64,000 nt of DNA from an uncultured Actinomycetota bacterium (GTDB lineage Bacteria > Actinomycetota > Actinomycetes > Mycobacteriales > SCTD01), in contig CAVSEK010000013.1 in assembly GCA_963726975.1 (NCBI GenBank), positions 680,773 to 744,772 on the forward strand, read 5' to 3'. The notes below the pieces were generated by a model, which saw nothing but the letters and a program-made list of their open reading frames with translations, was not told the origin of the DNA and did no database searches. Each line of letters starts with the position of its first letter. The stretch's first letter is position 1. A program made the position numbers and the translations under genes. Positions 35,249-43,481 of the stretch are shown here, one piece after another.

Positions 35249-35737
35249 GTGCCCTTCCTGCAGGACGAGCTGCGGCTGGCCACCGACGGTCCCGTCCGCT
35301 TCCGCCTGCTGGCCGACCTGGTCTACCAGGGCCGCGACGAGCGCTTCGTCGTGCCGGCCGGCTTCGTCACCGACCTCGCCTCGGTGCCGGAGGCGCTCAC
35401 GTGGCTGACGCCGCGCTACGGCGTGCACACCCGCGCGGCCGTGCTGCACGACCTGCTCACCGAGCGCGCCCGGAGCGGGTCGTTCTCCCGGCGCGACGCC
35501 GACGGCCTGTTCCGCCGGGTGCTCGGTGAGCTCGGGGTGGGGCTGGTGCGCCGCTGGATGATGTGGGCCGCCGTCCGCACCGCGTCGCGGCTGTCGGGGG
35601 CGACGCCGGGAGAGGTGCTGCGCTGGCTGCTCGTCGCGGTGCTGTCGGTGCCCTTCGCGCTGCCGCCGACGGTCCTCGTGCAGCTGTGGCTCTGGGCCTT
35701 CGCGCTCGCCGACCGGGTGGGGCGCCGCAGGCCCTGA
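35249..35737 (+). CDS. DUF1353 domain protein
   Basis: VVPAGFVTDLASVP, AAVLHDLL, RRDADGLF, RRWMMWAAVR. Confidence 0.85.
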   Translation: MPFLQDELRLATDGPVRFRLLADLVYQGRDERFVVPAGFVTDLASVPEALTWLTPRYGVHTRAAVLHDLLTERARSGSFSRRDADGLFRRVLGELGVGLVRRWMMWAAVRTASRLSGATPGEVLRWLLVAVLSVPFALPPTVLVQLWLWAFALADRVGRRRP

Positions 35738-35740
35738 GCC

Positions 35741-36412
35741 CTAGCGACGCGACCGGTCGACCTCGTCGAGCACGCGCCGCATGTCGCGCACCGCCCTCGC
35801 GGTGCCGCGGACGGTGCCGGTGACCTTCGACCGGCCGGTCCGCGGGGCGTACGCCACGTCGACCTCCCGCACCCGCCAGTCGGCCTGCGCGGCGGCCAGC
35901 ACCATCTCCAGCGGGTAGCCGAACCGCCGGTCCTGCAGGTCCAGGGCGAGCAGGGCGCTGCGGCGGCAGGCCCGCATCGGCCCGAGGTCGTGCAGGGCGT
36001 ACGGCGTGCGGCGCCGCAGCGAGCGGGCCACGGCGGCGTTGCCGAGCCGGGCGTGGGGCGGCCACGCGCCCGGGGTCGTCGGTCTGCGCCGTCCGAGGAC
36101 GAGGTCGGCCTCGCCCGCGAGCACCGGGTCGGCGACGCGCGGCAGCTCCTGCGGGTCGAGCGACCCGTCGGCGTCGAGGAAGCAGACGACGTCGTCAGCA
36201 GGGTCGGCCGCGAGCAGCCCGGCGTGGCACGCCGCGCCGAACCCGCGCGGCGACGCCGGCACGACGAGCGCGCCGTGCGCCCGGGCGACCTCCGGCGAGC
36301 CGTCCGTCGAGCCGTTGTCGGCGACCACGGCGCGGTAGCCCGCGGGCAGCCGCGAGAGCACCCACGGCAGCGCCGCCGCCTCGTCCAAGCAGGGCAGGAC
36401 GACGTCAGGCAC
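35741..36412 (-). CDS. GT2 glycosyltransferase (polyprenol-phosphate-sugar synthase-like)
   Basis: VVLPCLDEA, VADNGSTDGS, RGFGAAC, FLDADGS, DLGPMRA, SKVTGT. Confidence 0.9.
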   Translation of the reverse strand: MPDVVLPCLDEAAALPWVLSRLPAGYRAVVADNGSTDGSPEVARAHGALVVPASPRGFGAACHAGLLAADPADDVVCFLDADGSLDPQELPRVADPVLAGEADLVLGRRRPTTPGAWPPHARLGNAAVARSLRRRTPYALHDLGPMRACRRSALLALDLQDRRFGYPLEMVLAAAQADWRVREVDVAYAPRTGRSKVTGTVRGTARAVRDMRRVLDEVDRSRR

Positions 36413-37451
36413 GGTCGCCGCGCAGCGGGGCCGTCGCGAACTCGCGCATCCCGTCGGCGAACCCGACCTGCGCGCGGAAGCCGAGCTCGCGCGCGGCCCG
36501 CTCGGGGCTCGCGACGACGTGCCGCACGTCGCCGAGGCGGTACTGCCCCGTCACGACCGGCGCCGGACCGTCCGCCGCGATCGCGGTCGCGACGTCGGCG
36601 ATGGTGTGCGGCGTGCCGCTGGAGACGTTGTAGGCCGTGAGCGACCCCGGGGTGCCGGAGGCCGTGAGCGCCCGCAGGTTCGCCTGGGCGACGTCGCGCA
36701 CGTGCACGAAGTCGCGCTGCTGCCCGCCGTCCTCGTAGACCCGCGGCGCCTCGCCGCGGGCGACCGCGCTGCGGAACAGGCTCGCGACCCCGGCGTACGG
36801 GGTGTCGCGCGGCATGTGCGGGCCGTAGACGTTGTGGTAGCGCAGCGCGAGGCAGCTGCCGCCGCTCTGCCGCGCCCAGGACGCCGCGAGGTGCTCCTGC
36901 GCCGTCTTGGTGGCCGCGTAGACGCTGCGCGGGTCGACGGGCGCGTCCTCCGGCACGAGCCCCCAGGCGAGGTCGCGGCCGCACACAGGGCACGGCGGCT
37001 CCCAGCGACCGGCGTCGAGGTCGGCCTGCGCGCGCGGGAGCGGCCGGACGACGCCGTGCTCGGGGCAGGTGTAGCGGCCCTCGCCGTAGACGACCATCGA
37101 GCTGGCCAGCACCAGGCGACCGGTGCCCTCCCGGTCCATGGCCGCCAGCACCTCGGCGGTCCCCAGCTCGTTGACGCCGACGTAGAGCGGCAGGTCCTGC
37201 AGGTCGAGCCCGAGACCCACGACCGCCGCCTGGTGGCACACCGCGTCGATCCCGTCGAGGACGCCGTCGGGCAGCGCCCGCACGTCGCCGTGGACCCGCT
37301 CCGCGCGCCCGTCGAGGTGCTCCGGCCAGCCGCCCGGGTGCACCTCGGGGAGCAGCGCGTCGAGGACGCGCACCTCGTGGCCGTCGTCGAGCAGCGCCTC
37401 GACCACGTGCCCGCCGATGAAGCCGGCGCCGCCGGTGACCAGGACCCTCAC
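36405..37451 (-). CDS. NAD-dependent epimerase/dehydratase with Cys/His insert
   Basis: VTGGAGFIG, ASSMVVYGEG, CPEHG...CPVCG insert, YAATK, LRYHNVYGP, RDFVHVRD. Confidence 0.9.
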   Translation of the reverse strand: MRVLVTGGAGFIGGHVVEALLDDGHEVRVLDALLPEVHPGGWPEHLDGRAERVHGDVRALPDGVLDGIDAVCHQAAVVGLGLDLQDLPLYVGVNELGTAEVLAAMDREGTGRLVLASSMVVYGEGRYTCPEHGVVRPLPRAQADLDAGRWEPPCPVCGRDLAWGLVPEDAPVDPRSVYAATKTAQEHLAASWARQSGGSCLALRYHNVYGPHMPRDTPYAGVASLFRSAVARGEAPRVYEDGGQQRDFVHVRDVAQANLRALTASGTPGSLTAYNVSSGTPHTIADVATAIAADGPAPVVTGQYRLGDVRHVVASPERAARELGFRAQVGFADGMREFATAPLRGDRA

Positions 37452-37538
37452 CGGGCGAGCCTGCCACGGCGCGCCGTGGCCGCCCACGTGGGGCAGGCTG
37501 GGGCCGGAGCGCGCCGCGGGGCGCGGAGCGGAGGAACG

Positions 37539-38135
37539 GTGGACGCGGCGAGCGCAGGGGACCTGCCCGACCGGGACGACGTCGTGGGCTGGCCGGGGCG
37601 CGCGGTCGTCGACCCGGCCGGCAACGCCGTCGGCCGCTGCCGCGCCGTCTACGCCGACGACGACAGCGGTGACCCGCGCTGGCTGGTCGTCGACCTCGAC
37701 GACGGGCTGTCGCCCTTCGTCCCGCTGGCCGGGGCGACCCGCTCCGGGGAGCGGGTCGTCGTCGCCCACCGGCAGGAGCGCGTGGTCGGCGCGCCCGTGG
37801 TGCCGGACACCGGGCAGCTGCGGCCGGAGCAGGAGGCCGAGCTCTACGAGCACTACGGCGTCGCCTACGCGCGCCCGTCCGACGGCAGCTCGCCCGCGCC
37901 GACCGGGCGCCCCTCCTCCCCCGCGCCCGGCGCAGCCACCGCACCGGCCCCCGAGCCCGGCCCGGCCCCGGTCCACGCGCCGCTCGTGCCGCGCGGCCCC
38001 GACCCGGGGTCGGCGCCCTCGGCAGCGCCGCCCGACGCCGGACCCGGCCGCCGCTCCCGCCTGCTGCTCGTCGCCGCGGTGGTGCTGGGCGTGCTGGTGC
38101 TGCGCCGGCGGCGCCGGGTCCCGCGCACTGGCTAG
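37539..38135 (+). CDS. PRC-barrel domain protein with C-terminal TM anchor
   Basis: VVDPAGNAVG...VYADDDSGDPRWLVV...FVPL...EQEAELYEHYG; RBS GAGGA. Confidence 0.75.
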   Translation: MDAASAGDLPDRDDVVGWPGRAVVDPAGNAVGRCRAVYADDDSGDPRWLVVDLDDGLSPFVPLAGATRSGERVVVAHRQERVVGAPVVPDTGQLRPEQEAELYEHYGVAYARPSDGSSPAPTGRPSSPAPGAATAPAPEPGPAPVHAPLVPRGPDPGSAPSAAPPDAGPGRRSRLLLVAAVVLGVLVLRRRRRVPRTG

Positions 38136-38145
38136 CCTCGCCCGG

Positions 38146-39432
38146 GTGACCGCTCCGGCCTCCGACCTGTCCCTCGGCGACGACCTCCGCGCGTTCGTCG
38201 ACGCCTCCCCGTCGCCGACGCACGCGGTGGCAGAGGTCGTCCGGCGGCTGTCGGCGTCCGGGTTCCGCGCGCTCGACGAGCGCGACCTCTGGTCTCTGAC
38301 GCCCGGCGACGCCCGCTTCGTCGTGCGCGACGGCGGCAGCGTGGTCGCGTTCCGCGTCGGCACCGCCCCGGTCGCCGAGGCCGGGCTGCGGCTGGTCGGC
38401 GCGCACACCGACTCGCCGACGTTCAAGGTCCGCCCGCGCTGGGACGTGCGCCGGGCCGGCTACCGCCAGGTCGGGGTCGAGCCGTACGGCGGTCTGCTCG
38501 CCCACACCTGGCTCGACCGCGAGCTGACCGTCGCCGGGCGCCTCGTCGTCCGGGGCGGCGCCGTCGTGCCGGTGGTGCTGCCCGGCGCCCCGCTGCGGCT
38601 GCCGTCGCTGGCGATCCACCTGGACCGCAGCGTCCGGGAGGGCCTGACCCTCGACCCGCAGCGCCACCTCGTGCCGCTGTGGGGGCCGGAGCTGTCCAGC
38701 GAGCCCGGGCTGCTCGAGGCGCTGGCCGACGCCGCGGGGGTCGACGTCGGCGACGTGGTCGGCCACGACCTCGTGCTCGCCGACCCGCTGCCCGCGGCCC
38801 GGACCGGCTCCGACGGGACGTGGGTCGCTGCGCCGCGCCTGGACGACCTGGCCTGCTGCCACTCGGGGACGGCCGCGCTGCTGGCGGCGCAGGTGGCCGC
38901 GCACACCCAGGTGCTGGTCGCCAACGACCACGAGGAGGTCGGCAGCGGCTCCGCCGAGGGCGCCCGCGGGTCCTTCCTCGCCGACGTGCTCGCCCGCCTC
39001 GTCGCGGCCACCGGCGACCCGGACGCTCAGGCGGTGCACCGGGCCGTCGCGCGGTCGCGGCTGGTGTCGGCCGACATGGCCCACGCCGTGCACCCCAACC
39101 ACGCCGAGCGGCACGAGCCGATGCACGCGCCCGCCCTCGGGGGCGGCCCCGTCCTCAAGCTCAACGCCAACCAGTCGTACGCCACCGACGCCGTCTCGGG
39201 CGGCTGGTTCGCCGAGCGGTGCGCCGGCGCGGGCGTGCCGGTGCAGCACTTCGTCACCCGTGCCGACCTGCCGTGCGGCTCGACGATCGGGCCGCTCACC
39301 GCCACGCGGCTGGGGATCGCGACGGTCGACGTGGGCGCGCCGATGCTCGCGATGCACTCGTGCCGCGAGGTGGCGTCGGCGCTCGACGTCCCGCTCATGG
39401 TGCGCGCGCTGACCGCCTGCCTGCAGGACTGA
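38146..39432 (+). CDS. M18 family (aspartyl) aminopeptidase
   Basis: ASPSPTHAV, GAHTDSP, WLDREL, RLDDL, DHEEVGS, SADMAHAVHPN, CGSTIGP, LAMHS. Confidence 0.93.
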   Translation: MTAPASDLSLGDDLRAFVDASPSPTHAVAEVVRRLSASGFRALDERDLWSLTPGDARFVVRDGGSVVAFRVGTAPVAEAGLRLVGAHTDSPTFKVRPRWDVRRAGYRQVGVEPYGGLLAHTWLDRELTVAGRLVVRGGAVVPVVLPGAPLRLPSLAIHLDRSVREGLTLDPQRHLVPLWGPELSSEPGLLEALADAAGVDVGDVVGHDLVLADPLPAARTGSDGTWVAAPRLDDLACCHSGTAALLAAQVAAHTQVLVANDHEEVGSGSAEGARGSFLADVLARLVAATGDPDAQAVHRAVARSRLVSADMAHAVHPNHAERHEPMHAPALGGGPVLKLNANQSYATDAVSGGWFAERCAGAGVPVQHFVTRADLPCGSTIGPLTATRLGIATVDVGAPMLAMHSCREVASALDVPLMVRALTACLQD

Positions 39433-39441
39433 GCCGGCCGC

Positions 39442-39954
39442 TCACCGGCTGACGGCGGCGACCACCCGGGCGTACGCCTCGTCGGCGACCGCGACGAGCT
39501 CGTCGTCGGTGCGGTCCTGCACGGGGTGCGGCACGAAGACGCAGGCGGCCGGGAAGCCCAGCGACGCGCTCTGGGCGGCGACGGCGTCGACGAAGACGCT
39601 GCTGGCGAGGAACACCCCCACCACGCCGCGGCGCTCGAGGTCGGCGATGTCGTGCACACTGCACGACGTGCACGAGCCTCAATCGGCGAGCGCCTCGATG
39701 ACCACCTCGCACTGCTCGGCGATCTCGTGCCGCAGGTCGACCGGCGCGGGTCGGGCGAAGGTCGGCTTGCGGTAGCGGCGGACCAGCGCGCCGTCGCGCT
39801 CGAGCAGCTCGGCGAGCCGGTCGAGCACGACGTCGCCGCGGGCCTTGCTGATGTCGAGCAGGCCGACGCGGCGGCCGGCGAGCCCGTCGGGCCGGGGCAG
39901 CAGCCCGCGCTGCGCCGGACGCTGCTCCCCTGTCGGGTCGAGCACGACGGTCAT
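39442..39954 (-). CDS. UGSC-family selenoprotein (in-frame TGA = Sec at 39679-39681)
   Basis: Upstream ORF ends IEALAD-TGA and the same frame continues GSCTSCSVHDIADLERRG...FVPHPVQDRT to the stop at 39442; SECIS-like hairpin after the TGA. Confidence 0.88.
39649..39667 (-). promoter_or_regulatory. Bacterial SECIS element
   Basis: GUCGUGCA-GUG-UGCACGAC perfect 8-bp stem with a G-containing apical loop, starting after an 11-nt spacer 3' of the UGA. Confidence 0.75.
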
Positions 39955-41345
39955 CCCCGCACCTCCCTCGTCACGGGCACGCTGCCCGACTCACCGCTCA
40001 CCCAGCCGCCGACGACGGCGCTGAACAGCCCGGCGTCGCCGCCCGCGTGCACGACCAGCAGCCCGCCGGGGCGGAACTTGGGCAGGTCGACGCCGGCGTA
40101 CGCCTCCGGCACGCCCTCGGCGTTGCCGCCCGCGCCGCGCGCGATCTCGTCCGCCGGCAGCACCAGCAGCGCCTCGAGCTCGGCGACCAGGCGCGCCCGG
40201 TCCCACCCGGCCTCGCGGAAGACCCGGCCGTGCTCGGGCGACACCACGAGCAGGGCGTCGAAGGCCATCGGCAGCTTGGGGTGGCCGGTGACCCGCAGGC
40301 AGGCCGCGAACGAGCGCGCCAGCGACCCGGGGTCGCGGCTCAGCTGGTCGACGACCGGCTGCACCCCCGCGCCGGCGAACACGGTCACGGCGTCCCCGGG
40401 CACGCCGCGGTCCTGCGCCAGCGGCGCGAACGGGCTGTCGGCCTCGCGCTCGGCGAAGCAGAAGGTGTACTTGCCGGGGTTGCCGAGCACCGCCCGGTCC
40501 ACCTCACCGGGCCGTCCGCCGCCGACGTTGCGCACGACCAGCTGCAGCGCCCTGCCGATCGTCGCGTTGGCCCGGTTGCCCTGCCCGAGCGCGTTGACGC
40601 CGCTGTTCATCCCCACGCGGCGGGCGACGGGACCGTTGACGACGACGACCGGTCCGGAGAAGTACGTCGTGGCGAGCAGCCCGTGCAGCGCGAACGGCTC
40701 GGCGCAGGCCGCCTCGACCGCCGCGAGCACGACCGGCAGGTGCTCGGGCAGGCAGCCGGCGAGCACGGCGTTGACCGCGACCTTCTCGACCGTGCAGGGC
40801 ACGAGGTCCGGCGGCACGACGGCGACGACCTCCTGCGGGTCGCGGGTCGTCCCGCGCAGCATGCGCAGCACCCGCTCGGGCGTGGGAGGGACGACCGGCA
40901 GCCCGTCGGTCCAGCCCCGGTCGTACGCCGCCTCGTGCTCGTCCTCGGCGCTGGCCAGCTCGACCCGCCGGCTGACCAGCCCGTCGCCGTAGCGCGCCTC
41001 GAGCGCGTCGACCCGGTCCGGGTCGACCGACAGGGACCCGCAGCCGGGCCGGTGCTCGGGCAGGTCCTCGCCGAGCCCCTCGCGCCCGGTGAGCTCCTGC
41101 CACTGCTCGCGGCTCCAGCCGACCACCCGGGCGCGCTCCTGCCCGCCCTCGACCCGCAGCAGCGTCGGCACGGTCTCCACGCCGAGGCGCCACGACAGCT
41201 CGAGCGAGGTGTCGTCGCCGTCGAACCACTCCGGGTCGTCCTGGCACCACACCCGGGCGCCGAGGCCGCGCAGCACCGGCTCGACGAGCACGCAGGTCGG
41301 GCAGTCGCGCTTGACGACGGCGACGAGTCCGTCGGGCAGCTCCAC
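39951..41345 (-). CDS. Thioredoxin-like (CxxC) domain fused to an uncharacterised WTDGLPVVPPT domain (UGSC partner)
   Basis: VKRDCPTC, VETVPTL, RPGCGS, GWTDGLPVVPPTPERV, TVEKVAVNAVLAGC, NRANATIGRA; ATGA overlap with the UGSC gene. Confidence 0.85.
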   Translation of the reverse strand: MELPDGLVAVVKRDCPTCVLVEPVLRGLGARVWCQDDPEWFDGDDTSLELSWRLGVETVPTLLRVEGGQERARVVGWSREQWQELTGREGLGEDLPEHRPGCGSLSVDPDRVDALEARYGDGLVSRRVELASAEDEHEAAYDRGWTDGLPVVPPTPERVLRMLRGTTRDPQEVVAVVPPDLVPCTVEKVAVNAVLAGCLPEHLPVVLAAVEAACAEPFALHGLLATTYFSGPVVVVNGPVARRVGMNSGVNALGQGNRANATIGRALQLVVRNVGGGRPGEVDRAVLGNPGKYTFCFAEREADSPFAPLAQDRGVPGDAVTVFAGAGVQPVVDQLSRDPGSLARSFAACLRVTGHPKLPMAFDALLVVSPEHGRVFREAGWDRARLVAELEALLVLPADEIARGAGGNAEGVPEAYAGVDLPKFRPGGLLVVHAGGDAGLFSAVVGGWVSGESGSVPVTREVRG

Positions 41346-41447
41346 GGCCGGACGCTACCGCGGCAGGTGAGGTGGGACGCGCAGCCGGGAAGGGCTCCGG
41401 GCGACGAGGCGGGCCGCCGGCCGCCCAGGACGGACGGAGGACCGACC

Positions 41448-42416
41448 GTGACCCGGTTCGGCTACACGATGATGACCGAGCAGAGCCGCCCCGACCAGCT
41501 CGTGCGCGACCTGCAGGCGGCCGAGGAGGCGGGCTTCGACTTCTCGGTGATCTCCGACCACTACAACCCGTGGCTGGAGTCGCAGGGCCACGCGGGCTAC
41601 GCCTGGTCGATCCTCGGCGCCGCGGCGCAGGCGACCTCGCGGATCCCGCTGATGACGTACGTGACCTGCCCGACCCTGCGCTACCACCCGGCGGTCGTGG
41701 CGCAGAAGGCGGCGACCATGGGCATCCTGTCCGGCGGCCGGTTCCGGCTCGGGCTCGGCGCCGGGGAGAACCTCAACGAGCACGTCGTCGGCAAGCGGCT
41801 GGCCGGCCGTCGGCGTGCGCCACGAGATGCTGTCCGAGGCGGTCGACATCATCACGGCGCTGCTCGACGGGGAGCACGTCAACTACCGCGGCAAGCACTT
41901 CGACGTCGAGAGCGCGAAGCTCTGGGACCTGCCCGACGAGCGCGTGCCGATCGGCATCGCGGTGTCGGGGCAGCGGTCCTGCGACCTGGCCGGCCGCAAG
42001 GCCGACCTCATGATCGCGACCGAGCCGGAGCCGGAGCTCGGCGAGATGTTCGACGCCGCGGGCGGGGCGGGCAAGCCGCGGGTCGGCCAGATCGCCGTCT
42101 GCTACGACCCCGACCGCGACGCCGCCGTGCAGACGGGCGCACGAGCAGTTCCGCTGGTTCGGGCTGGGCTGGAAGGTCAACGCCGACCTGCCGGGCCCGT
42201 CGTCGTTCGAGGCGGCGACGCAGTTCGTCACGCCGGAGCAGGTCGGCGAGCAGCTGCCCTGCGGCGCGGACGTGCAGGAGTACGTCGAGAAGATCAAGCC
42301 GTTCGTCGAGGCGGGCTTCACCGAGGTCGCGCTGGTGCAGATCGGCGCCGAGCGGCCAGGCGGAGTTCTTCCGCTGGGCGCAGGCCGAGCTGCTGCCGGC
42401 GCTGAGGGAGCTGTAG
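41448..42416 (+). CDS. F420-dependent LLM-class oxidoreductase (TIGR03557/G6PDH-F420-like), frameshifted
   Basis: FGYTMMTEQ, ISDHYNPW, VTCPTLRYHPAVVAQ, LGLGAGENLNEH. Confidence 0.88.
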   Translation: MTRFGYTMMTEQSRPDQLVRDLQAAEEAGFDFSVISDHYNPWLESQGHAGYAWSILGAAAQATSRIPLMTYVTCPTLRYHPAVVAQKAATMGILSGGRFRLGLGAGENLNEHVVGKRLAGRRRAPRDAVRGGRHHHGAARRGARQLPRQALRRREREALGPARRARADRHRGVGAAVLRPGRPQGRPHDRDRAGAGARRDVRRRGRGGQAAGRPDRRLLRPRPRRRRADGRTSSSAGSGWAGRSTPTCRARRRSRRRRSSSRRSRSASSCPAARTCRSTSRRSSRSSRRASPRSRWCRSAPSGQAEFFRWAQAELLPALREL

Positions 42417-42422
42417 CCGAGG

Positions 42423-42477
42423 CCCCTGCGTCCGCCCCGCGCGGGCACGCTCACCGCGTGTCGGGCGGACGCAGGGG
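42423..42477. terminator. Long inverted repeat between convergent genes
   Basis: CCCCTGCGTCCGCCC...GGGCGGACGCAGGGG 15-bp arms. Confidence 0.75.
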
Positions 42478-42479
42478 GC

Positions 42480-43481
42480 TCAGACCTCCTGCGCCTGCCT
42501 CGCCAGGGCGGTGAGCCGCGAGACCGCGCGCTGGTACTTCTTGCGGTAGCCGCCGGACAGCAGCTCGTCGGGGAACAGCCGGTCCAGCGGCACGCCGCTG
42601 GTCACCAGCGGCACGTCGCGGTCGTACAGCCGGTCGGCGAGCACGACCAGGCGCAGCGCGGCGGACTGGTCGTCCACGGGGTGCACGCCGACGAGCCCGA
42701 CCAGCGGCACGTCGTCGACGAGCGCGCCGTAGCGCGAGGGGTGCAGCTGCGACAGGTGCTGCAGCAACCCGTCGAAGTCGTCGCAGGAGGCCCCGTCGAC
42801 AGCGGTCGTGCGCTGCGCCACCTCGCCGTCGTCGACGGGTGCGGGCGCCTCCGGGAGGCCGCGGTGGCGGTAGTCCTCGCCGTCGACGCGCAGCGGCGCG
42901 AAGTGCGACGACAGCCCCTGGATCTCGCGCAGGAAGTCCTGCGCGGCGAAGCGCCCCTCCCCGAGCGAGCCGGGCAGCGTGTTGGAGGTCGCCGCGACGT
43001 GCACGCCGGCGTCGACGAGCTTGCCGAGCAGCGTCGAGACCAGCACCGTGTCGCCCGGGTCGTCGAGCTCGAACTCGTCGATCGCGAGCAGCCGGTGCTG
43101 CGACAGCGCCTCGACCGTGCCCGCGAAGCCCAGCGCGCCGACCAGGTGCGTCAGCTCGACGAAGGTGGCGTACGCCTTGGGCGCCGGTGCGGCGTGCCAG
43201 AGGGCCGTGAGCAGGTGGGTCTTGCCCACGCCGAAGCCGCCGTCGAGGTAGACGCCCGCCGGCCCGCGTGGCTGCGCCCGCCCGAGCAGGCGCCGCCGCG
43301 GCGGCTCGAGGGTGCCGGCGAACTCCTGCAGCGCCTGGACGGCAGCGGCCTGCGAGGGCTGGCCGGGGTCGGGGTCGTACGTGTCGAAGCGCGCCCGGTC
43401 GAAGCGCGGCGGCGGCACCAGGCCGGCCACGAGCGTGTCGACCGGCACCTGCGGGTCCCGGTCGACCAGCGACAGCGGCAT
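42480..43481 (-). CDS. zapE: Cell division ATPase ZapE (AFG1 family)
   Basis: YLDGGFGVGKTHL, IDEFELDDPGDT, ATSNTLP, DYRHR, RAVSRL. Confidence 0.92.
   Translation of the reverse strand: MPLSLVDRDPQVPVDTLVAGLVPPPRFDRARFDTYDPDPGQPSQAAAVQALQEFAGTLEPPRRRLLGRAQPRGPAGVYLDGGFGVGKTHLLTALWHAAPAPKAYATFVELTHLVGALGFAGTVEALSQHRLLAIDEFELDDPGDTVLVSTLLGKLVDAGVHVAATSNTLPGSLGEGRFAAQDFLREIQGLSSHFAPLRVDGEDYRHRGLPEAPAPVDDGEVAQRTTAVDGASCDDFDGLLQHLSQLHPSRYGALVDDVPLVGLVGVHPVDDQSAALRLVVLADRLYDRDVPLVTSGVPLDRLFPDELLSGGYRKKYQRAVSRLTALARQAQEV

Follow-up and report, generated by a model that had tools for sequence, protein, structure and literature searches.

A UGSC-family selenoprotein strictly paired with an uncatalogued large domain: a candidate two-subunit thiol/selenol-dependent reductase

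In the protein B systems of selenium-dependent amino acid reductases, a selenoprotein with a U-x-x-C(-x-x-C) centre acts together with a larger subunit that is specific for the substrate, and a thiol system recycles the selenoprotein; the complete U-x-x-C-x-x-C spacing is a feature of GrdB. Disulfide reductants are also known as natural fusions, for example in the thioredoxin (Trx)-fused methionine sulfoxide reductases and in AhpF with AhpC. Here we describe a two-gene locus that resembles each of these arrangements in part. It lies on the minus strand of a 64,000-nucleotide stretch of contig CAVSEK010000013.1 from an uncultured Actinomycetota bacterium (this whole stretch is called the window below, and its numbering is used for all coordinates of the locus). 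The first gene encodes a protein of 464 amino acids (aa), which consists of a Trx-like domain, a linker and a large uncatalogued domain; the second encodes a selenoprotein of the UGSC family. The two genes are one functional unit, as they co-occur strictly, are found fused in both orders and encode proteins that are predicted to bind each other. We consider it reasonably likely that they are the two subunits of a thiol/selenol-dependent reductase fed by disulfide reductants.

The UGSC family of Zhang and Gladyshev, with which the small gene shares the U-G-S-C motif, the in-frame UGA and a hairpin downstream of it, entered the selenoprotein catalogues in 2007-2008. The entries on it in the early papers (PMC1976440, PMC2398784) and in selenoprotein catalogues (PMC9312934) give its function as unknown, and the corresponding entry in a 2026 review (PMC13188914) still places it among the uncharacterised families. 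The literature searched assigns neither a function nor a partner to UGSC and, as an earlier interpretation of the bare DNA (the sequence-only reading) had stated, no substrate or reaction to the pair. A fusion of UGSC with a conserved domain called 'Unknown_1' is mentioned with a supplementary figure (PMC2398784); going by that mention, 'Unknown_1' may be the large domain described here. What the searched literature does not describe is how strictly UGSC is paired with the large domain, that fusions occur in either order and that reductase modules are fused as well; the UGSC family itself is known.

The likeness to protein B of the glycine, sarcosine, betaine and D-proline reductases (GrdB, GrdF, GrdH or PrdB, with the pyruvoyl proproteins GrdE or PrdA) is one of outline only. 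Unlike in those systems, the large domain has no match to GrdE or PrdA, and most hosts live aerobically in soil and water and are not amino acid fermenters. The sequence-only reading had been reminded of glycine and proline reductase, but a kinship could not be upheld: the model scores stayed below the cut-offs, no GrdE/PrdA-type partner was present, and the profile comparison was negative. Residues 79-152 of the UGSC protein match GrdF and GrdB weakly around their selenocysteine (Sec) at E values of 0.003-0.008, and the scores of the protein against TIGR01917 and NF040794 are 15.1 and 16.3 bits, with cut-offs of 602 and 800. The Pfam model GRDB (PF07355) gave no UGSC match, and none of the 51 aligned relatives of the large protein matched a Gly_reductase family at E <= 1. 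Cleavage of the large protein by itself between Gly197 and Cys198, of a pyruvoyl or N-terminal-nucleophile type, was considered but is not proposed. An hhalign comparison with five small PrdB-like selenoproteins from three genomes in which the module is present too yielded probabilities of 1.6% for UGSC and 0.06% for the large domain, which is weak negative evidence because the UGSC alignment has an effective number of sequences (Neff) of 1.8.

The relation to natural fusions of Trx and Trx reductase (TrxR) is a different one. As in those fusions, a disulfide reductant sits on or beside the enzyme that it would recharge, and the module is swapped by lineage for a Trx-, TrxR- or ferredoxin:thioredoxin reductase (FTR)-like one. 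Unlike in those fusions, the enzyme to be recharged is in two parts, one a selenoprotein and the other a domain that belongs to no described family, and the invariant linker Cys (PGCGS) is lost less often than the second Cys of the CxxC motif.

Related loci were collected by a scan of one genome per species. There were 608 relatives, the best 80 of which were used; all of these are Trx-fused and at least 52% identical. In 76 of the 80 loci, the next gene downstream, on the same strand, is a UGSC gene, and the two-gene module with an ATGA overlap that had been read from the window is thus not only present there but recurs as a protein pair in these relatives. The 80 loci come from Actinomycetota, Proteobacteria, Myxococcota, Chloroflexota, Acidobacteriota, spirochaetes and other phyla. 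The four genomes that have no UGSC gene at this locus contain 3-8 UGSC and 4-9 large-domain genes elsewhere, and 17 of their 24 large-domain places adjoin UGSC, which corresponds to 3-5 adjacent pairs per genome. They (L075, L083, L087 and L093) are of the Acidimicrobiia type; all their UGSC genes carry TGA, and it is the Trx-fused copy that has no UGSC neighbour. In one of these four genomes (G268), exactly one UGSC gene stands alone. The presence of 3-5 pairs in each Acidimicrobiia-type genome fits a family with several substrates.

An even sample of 201 Actinomycetota genomes gave the same picture. The large domain was found in 14 of them, and UGSC scored over the cut-off in the same 14. 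UGSC is adjacent at all 17 large-domain places, with the large gene first in 10 cases and UGSC first or fused in 7. In two rows, UGSC stands without a neighbouring large domain; one is a partial match on another contig, and the other is a match of 21.6 bits, below the cut-off, in a fifteenth genome. The comparison of co-occurrence and fusion proposed by the sequence-only reading therefore came out in favour of the pair, with the same 14 genomes, 17 of 17 places and fusions in both orders. A third conserved gene was sought by clustering all open reading frames (ORFs) of at least 90 aa in the 80 loci, and the best candidate was found in only 17 of them. The representatives of the neighbour clusters were HhH-GPD, flavin reductase, MauE, acyl-CoA dehydrogenase, CoA-transferase, thiolase, MaoC and SelA. 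In eight loci with large-domain forms that have no Trx domain, the neighbours included an SDR protein directly downstream (three loci), Amidohydro_2 (three), acyl-CoA dehydrogenase (two), FAD_oxidored (one) and transporters.

To describe the fusions, 48 cluster representatives were scanned with Pfam in two batches. UGSC was found in 16 of these: three are whole N-terminal fusions, 11 begin just past the Sec position, and two have model positions 1-92 at their C terminus and end at the Sec position. In 11 of the 16, the gene call was cut at the UGA. Both orders, UGSC followed by the large domain and the large domain followed by UGSC, exist. Among 68 homologues longer than 604 aa, the precomputed Pfam domains include UGSC in 27, a thioredoxin-reductase-like Pyr_redox_2 in 11, AhpC/Redoxin in two, and FAD_oxidored and CMD/AhpD in one each. 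The remainder are single cases that may be due to read-through of neighbouring genes. When 10 long homologues were scanned again, Pyr_redox_2 was C-terminal in three proteins (P0412, P0413 and P0421) and N-terminal in a fourth (P0423). One cluster representative carries the FTR catalytic chain.

The distribution of these fusions was followed on a tree of 111 domain copies, drawn from those 108 proteins, among 217 with hits, in which at least 290 profile positions are matched, plus the protein of the window. The UGSC-first fusion changes 16 times on this tree by parsimony, at least nine times on well-supported branches; for the reductase fusion, the numbers are three and at least two. Rows labelled Trx, AhpC or FTR form one clade of 39 rows, which includes the protein of the window and has a support of 96 in the Shimodaira-Hasegawa-like approximate likelihood ratio test (SH-aLRT). 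The labels depend on the gene calls, and rows labelled as standing alone may thus be cut forms. All 14 Trx-fold-fused representatives carry a C-(P/A/E)-T-(C/S/T) motif and none of them has the peroxiredoxin motif PxxxTxxC; the second Cys of the CxxC motif is lost in five, and the linker Cys is kept in 13. As far as can be judged from these motifs, the 'AhpC' label of the N-terminal modules reflects the best-fitting Pfam model, and the modules are reductants rather than peroxidases.

The small gene encodes a full member of the UGSC family. With TGA translated as U, it yields a single protein of 170 aa that has U92 within ADUGSCTSC and ends at a second TGA (39442-39444). This protein matches Pfam PF24696 with 142.9 bits (cut-off 25) over model positions 2-170 of 172 and NCBIfam NF041046 with 144.5 bits (cut-off 125). 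In the 76 related loci with a downstream UGSC gene, the codon at the Sec position is TGA in 72, TAG in three and TGC in one (L056), and the motif *GSCTSC is present in 65. U/C92, C95, C98 and His101 are invariant among the aligned UGSC sequences. A hairpin with a stem of 8 bp begins 11 nt past the UGA and belongs to the minimum-free-energy fold. Over the 76 aligned sequences, 95.7% of the cells are paired; three of the eight pairs show compensatory change and three never vary. None of 500 shuffles reached these pairing values. The hairpin region is nearly fixed at synonymous sites across phyla, and the Cys-codon locus L056 has the same peptide but has lost the hairpin through synonymous changes.

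The genome from which the window comes (13 contigs, 88% complete) contains selA, selB and selD, all scoring over their cut-offs and clustered on one contig, and a tRNA-Sec with the anticodon tca (UCA) adjoins selD. Taken together, the aligned codons, the hairpin and the Sec machinery argue that the UGA is read through as Sec and that this is a real selenoprotein gene. Of 61 genomes in the GTDB family of the source organism, many of which are incomplete, 23 have a UGSC gene that scores above the cut-off, in every case with TGA.

Some further observations concern the Sec machinery. In the source genome, selD, tRNA-Sec, selA and selB make up one cluster on contig C4 (about 523120-530757), and we would expect a formate dehydrogenase selenoprotein gene in the 4.4 kb between tRNA-Sec and selA. 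In six of the 80 loci selA is located directly upstream of the pair (e.g. L027:872-2167); in these lineages, the Sec machinery and the module travel together. The three TAG codons (L014:5665-5667, L015:1947-1949 and L092:1371-1373; listed with them is L094:1501-1595) occur with the same hairpin in three close relatives, namely a Geodermatophilus obscurus record and two metagenome-assembled genomes (MAGs) of Geodermatophilus and Blastococcus. The L014 genome has a homologue of tRNA-Sec with the anticodon CTA, which ARAGORN labels Pyl. A TAG codon together with a CTA tRNA fits natural recoding of UAG to Sec, as was reportedly described by Mukai and colleagues in 2016. For G. obscurus, one table in PMC3639795 lists a tRNA-Pyl-like hit with the footnote 'No UAG-anticodon'.

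Genomes that hold the module also encode small selenoproteins of 244-289 aa, which match only the C-terminal part of GRDB (about positions 207-345, 30-34 bits) and have a P-x-U-P-x-C motif. Examples are L104:1147-2013 on the minus strand, L105:1315-2046, L106:1213-2016, L107:1435-2208 and L108:1399-2184; no PrdA was seen in the stretches around them. These proteins are probably the 'PrdB-like' family of ocean surveys.

All motifs that the sequence-only reading had listed for the 464-aa protein are present (KRDCPTC, VPT, PGCGS, GWTDGLPVVPPT, VNAVLAGC and NRANATIGRA). Its N-terminal domain is a putative Trx fold by the conserved CPTC and VPT motifs and by a sub-threshold match to Thioredoxin_2 (19.3 bits, cut-off 27, E 0.0015); nine of 51 relatives also match this model weakly. 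The cysteines of the proposed thiol/selenol relay turned out to be conserved throughout: Cys15 and Cys18 are found in 77 of 78 Trx-fused sequences, and Cys102 of the linker and Cys198 of the large domain in all 78. Pro60 is invariant, and a further large-domain cysteine, Cys296, is present in 74. Where the large domain stands alone, it always has Cys198, and at least 90% of these forms retain Cys296. How electrons would pass along the relay, and by what chemistry, we infer.

The large domain itself matched no characterised enzyme by sequence in any of the four resources searched, in line with the earlier expectation. Apart from the sub-threshold Thioredoxin_2 hit, Pfam gave no match to the 464-aa protein and NCBIfam gave none at all; sequence profile searches of the PDB with the large domain reached a best E value of 0.5 with a first alignment and nothing with a second; and in the ESM Atlas only the unnamed family of the protein itself came up, along with a single cluster with UGSC in 16% of its members and no usable named cluster. 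The family is nevertheless large. There were at least 8000 homologue candidates at E <= 0.001, and an exhaustive search with the 464-aa protein yielded 5768 cluster representatives with E values up to 0.001, of which 1328 were at 1e-30 or below. The best 120 homologues are 80-100% identical, come from Blastococcus, Geodermatophilus, Modestobacter and metagenomes, have no precomputed Pfam domain and are called 'thioredoxin family protein' or hypothetical by their sources. Residues 120-464 (345 aa) also occur as standalone proteins of about 350 aa.

As the sequence-only reading had suggested a multimer prediction, the complex was modelled with the natural Cys-form pair of L056, using alignments; its large protein is 57-58% and its UGSC protein 46% identical to those of the window. 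Binding is predicted for this stand-in: the interaction score ipSAE was 0.81, 0.83 and 0.81, and the best of three controls reached 0.00. The runs agree in at least 94% of the contacts, and the predicted local distance difference test (pLDDT) of the partner is at least 90. In a calibration, which is only rough for models with their own alignments, 116 of 157 solved complexes and two of 215 mismatched pairs scored at or above the mark. The interface comprises the N terminus (residues 4-14) and residues 67-72, 95-97 (Cys/Sec-G-S), 99-101 and 104 on the UGSC side. On the large domain, in the numbering of the window's protein, it comprises residues 123-132, 153-156 (PPT), 178-184, 188-195, 221-227, 269-276 and 281-284, with the motifs PPT, NAVM, TT and RNxGG. 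The Sec/Cys loop of UGSC is therefore predicted to sit in the interface. A search of the PDB by sequence found no complex of this kind.

Every module that is fused to the large domain reduces disulfides by two electrons, and for this reason we read the pair as a reductase that is fed by them. The large domain (residues 120-464) would be the substrate-specific part, with Cys198 and conserved polar and arginine residues as candidate functional residues. UGSC would dock on it in such a way that the Sec92-x-x-Cys95 centre is placed at a shared active site. In a possible cycle, Sec92 would attack the bound substrate or an intermediate linked to Cys198, and the cycle would close with a Se-S bond, either to Cys95 or to a cysteine of the large protein. 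This bond could then be reduced via the linker Cys102 and the Cys15/Cys18 pair of the fused Trx-like domain, which would itself draw electrons from NADPH through thioredoxin reductase. Which way the electrons flow, what each cysteine does and what is reduced are inferred. Sec is preferred in 75 of 76 loci, its loop sits in the modelled interface, and single genomes hold several paralogous pairs; these observations favour a composite active site that acts on differing small substrates. The reaction that we favour is a reduction or a reductive cleavage, in which each paralogue would have its own small organic substrate. More tentatively, the pair may represent a new class of selenoenzymes without characterised kin at the sequence level, in which a composite Sec/Cys site at the interface receives electrons from whichever of Trx, TrxR or FTR the lineage supplies, and whose several paralogues per genome would serve aerobic bacteria of soil and water in the reductive cleavage of various small organic compounds.

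Four other explanations were considered. The large domain could be an enzyme with its own chemistry whose Cys198, alone or with Cys296, has to stay reduced or is switched by oxidation, and UGSC a dedicated 'selenoredoxin' that conveys electrons from the Trx domain and does not touch the substrate. The conservation of these two large-domain cysteines would suit such a role, as would the small size of UGSC and its UxxC centre; moreover, TrxR-like modules are fused to large domains that have no Trx domain, and UGSC could be the Trx-like carrier there. However, electron carriers rarely pair and fuse so strictly with one client, in both orders and at 17 of 17 places, the use of Sec over Cys in 75 of 76 loci suits a catalytic nucleophile better than a carrier, and in the modelled interface the Sec loop lies against those motifs of the large domain that are best conserved. 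We thus regard this explanation as unlikely. An antioxidant enzyme that acts on peroxides, sulfoxides or oxidised small thiols, with Sec92 attacking, Cys95 resolving and Trx recycling, seems quite improbable to us. Prokaryotic selenoproteins with UxxC or CxxU are mostly thiol oxidoreductases, and some N-terminal modules are labelled AhpC/Redoxin and one CMD/AhpD by Pfam. Yet the AhpC-labelled modules share C-P-T-C/S with the Trx-like ones, lack PxxxTxxC and group with the Trx-labelled rows in the well-supported clade of 39. Furthermore, the reduction of peroxides needs no partner of 345 aa with many invariant polar residues, and up to five adjacent pairs per genome with metabolic neighbours are better explained by a diversity of substrates.

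It has also to be asked whether the conserved residues serve redox chemistry at all. The U-x-x-C-x-x-C-x-x-H motif of UGSC and the cysteines of the large protein could bind or transform a soft metal or metalloid (Hg, As, Se, Te or Cu) or hold an Fe-S cluster without any redox cycling. The invariance of all four residues in the aligned UGSC sequences agrees with this, and their spacing resembles that of metal-binding CxxCxxC motifs. But genes for metal resistance or transport are not recurrent beside the pair, neither in the 80 loci nor next to the non-Trx forms, and the recurrent fusions are all to disulfide-reductase modules, which leaves little room for this idea. Finally, the UGA might be a true stop, so that the large gene would be followed by two small unrelated ORFs and no selenoprotein. 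Under translation table 11 the UGSC frame is indeed split into 39679..39954 (91 aa) and 39442..39657 (71 aa). However, one continuous match to the UGSC model crosses the UGA, the aligned codon is TGA, TAG or TGC, the selenocysteine insertion sequence (SECIS) hairpin is conserved and the genome has the full Sec machinery, and a relative with TAG at this codon has a tRNA with the matching anticodon CTA. We therefore give practically no credence to this explanation.

A number of points weigh against our reading of the pair as a Sec-dependent two-subunit reductase. By sequence comparison, there appears to be no detectable homology to any characterised Sec-dependent reductase. Cys forms of UGSC exist, so selenium is not strictly required; a query with the L056 Cys form had 605 matches, counted whatever the residue at the Sec position. 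The modelled complex is that of a stand-in pair and not of the window's own proteins, its confident contacts omit Cys198 (Cys208 in L056), the CxxC motif and Cys102, and the interface residues are barely more conserved than the rest of the domain (0.75 versus 0.69, permutation p about 0.05). The variable neighbours (SDR, Amidohydro_2, acyl-CoA dehydrogenase, CoA-transferase and transporters) give no hint of a substrate. As to expression, a search of sequencing runs for transcripts found at most 0.11 of the words of the stretch in any run. Four RNA libraries (82% likeness) contain short contigs over both genes, but from relatives and not from the organism itself; one of these contigs, of 128 nt, spans the UGA with six differences. 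No start, strand or level can be read from such contigs, and DNA carry-over is possible.

Features of the locus on the minus strand of the window
Feature	Position	Strand	Basis
Gene of the 464-aa protein (large uncatalogued domain preceded by a Trx-like domain and a linker)	39951..41345, stop codon included	-	ORF with GTG start
Gene of the UGSC-family selenoprotein, 170 aa plus stop	39442..39954	-	Translation with TGA=U; PF24696 and NF041046 scores
ATGA overlap, stop of the 464-aa gene and start of the UGSC gene	39951..39954	-	Sequence; same overlap in locus L056
TAGCGT, -10-like hexamer (TANNNT) 6 nt before the GTG; possible promoter for leaderless transcription	41352..41357	-	Sequence
N-terminal Trx-like domain, about residues 1-95, boundary approximate	41061..41345	-	CPTC; Pro60 in VPT
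KRDCPTC motif, codons of Cys15 and Cys18	41292-41303	-	Sequence
Linker PGCGS, codon of Cys102	41040..41042	-	Cys in 78/78 Trx-fused sequences
Large domain, residues 120-464	39954..40988	-	Motifs GWTDGLPVVPPT, NAVLAGC, RANATIGRA; no family matched
Codon of Cys198 in VNAVLAGC	40752-40754	-	78/78 sequences
Codon of Cys296, large domain	40458-40460	-	74/78 sequences
In-frame UGA, selenocysteine U92, motif U-G-S-C-T-S-C	39679..39681	-	Translation; aligned codons
SECIS-like hairpin GUCGUGCA-GUG-UGCACGAC	39649..39667	-	Minimum-free-energy fold and covariation

The GTG start at 41345 matches the first residues of relatives, which begin with GTG in L015 and L016 and with ATG in L026. A Shine-Dalgarno sequence is missing before this GTG, and TANNNT boxes are located 6-8 nt before the start in four of 10 relatives inspected (L015, L016, L024 and L027). 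Judged from these elements, a leaderless transcript of the 464-aa gene with TAGCGT in its promoter is plausible. Downstream of the pair, a convergent M18 aminopeptidase gene ends at 39432, and upstream, a divergent gene for an LLM-class F420 oxidoreductase begins at 41448; the unit thus consists of two genes.

The divergent orientation of the F420 gene had been noted in the sequence-only reading and is correct, but the speculation that the encoded enzyme might be a redox partner found no support: the gene is not a conserved neighbour, is not found beside the pair in the relatives checked and is frameshifted here. In L014-L017 and L092, blastn gave no match to it and tblastx gave only high-GC noise. 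Within the gene (41448-42520, plus strand), positions 1-115 of TIGR03557 are matched in the frame of 41448, and a second frame, that of 41815, carries the match to positions 120-237. There is accordingly at least one frameshift near 41800-41815, and the ORF translations suggest others near 42170 and 42350. The gene is either a pseudogene or affected by assembly indels.

Long ORFs rich in Arg, Ala and Pro run antisense or out of frame in the window, for example one of 1313 aa at 35416-39357 on the minus strand, over the M18 aminopeptidase gene. These are shadow ORFs as usual in high-GC DNA and not genes. An Rfam search of 39300-41500 found no family over the threshold. A sub-threshold match to the Guanidine-II riboswitch at 40842-40882 on the minus strand (22.1 bits versus 32, E 0.12), inside the coding region of the large gene, is regarded as a chance hit.

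Now that its partner is fixed, an interface predicted and the supply of electrons defined, the orphan UGSC family becomes a two-protein enzyme that can be put to the test. Natural pairs that have only Cys and no Sec can be expressed without the selenocysteine machinery, and, according to the source names, the cultivable hosts Blastococcus, Geodermatophilus and Modestobacter are among those with the closest homologues. If the pair does carry out a new reductive reaction, it would add a further selenium-dependent step to the turnover of carbon or nitrogen in oxic habitats.

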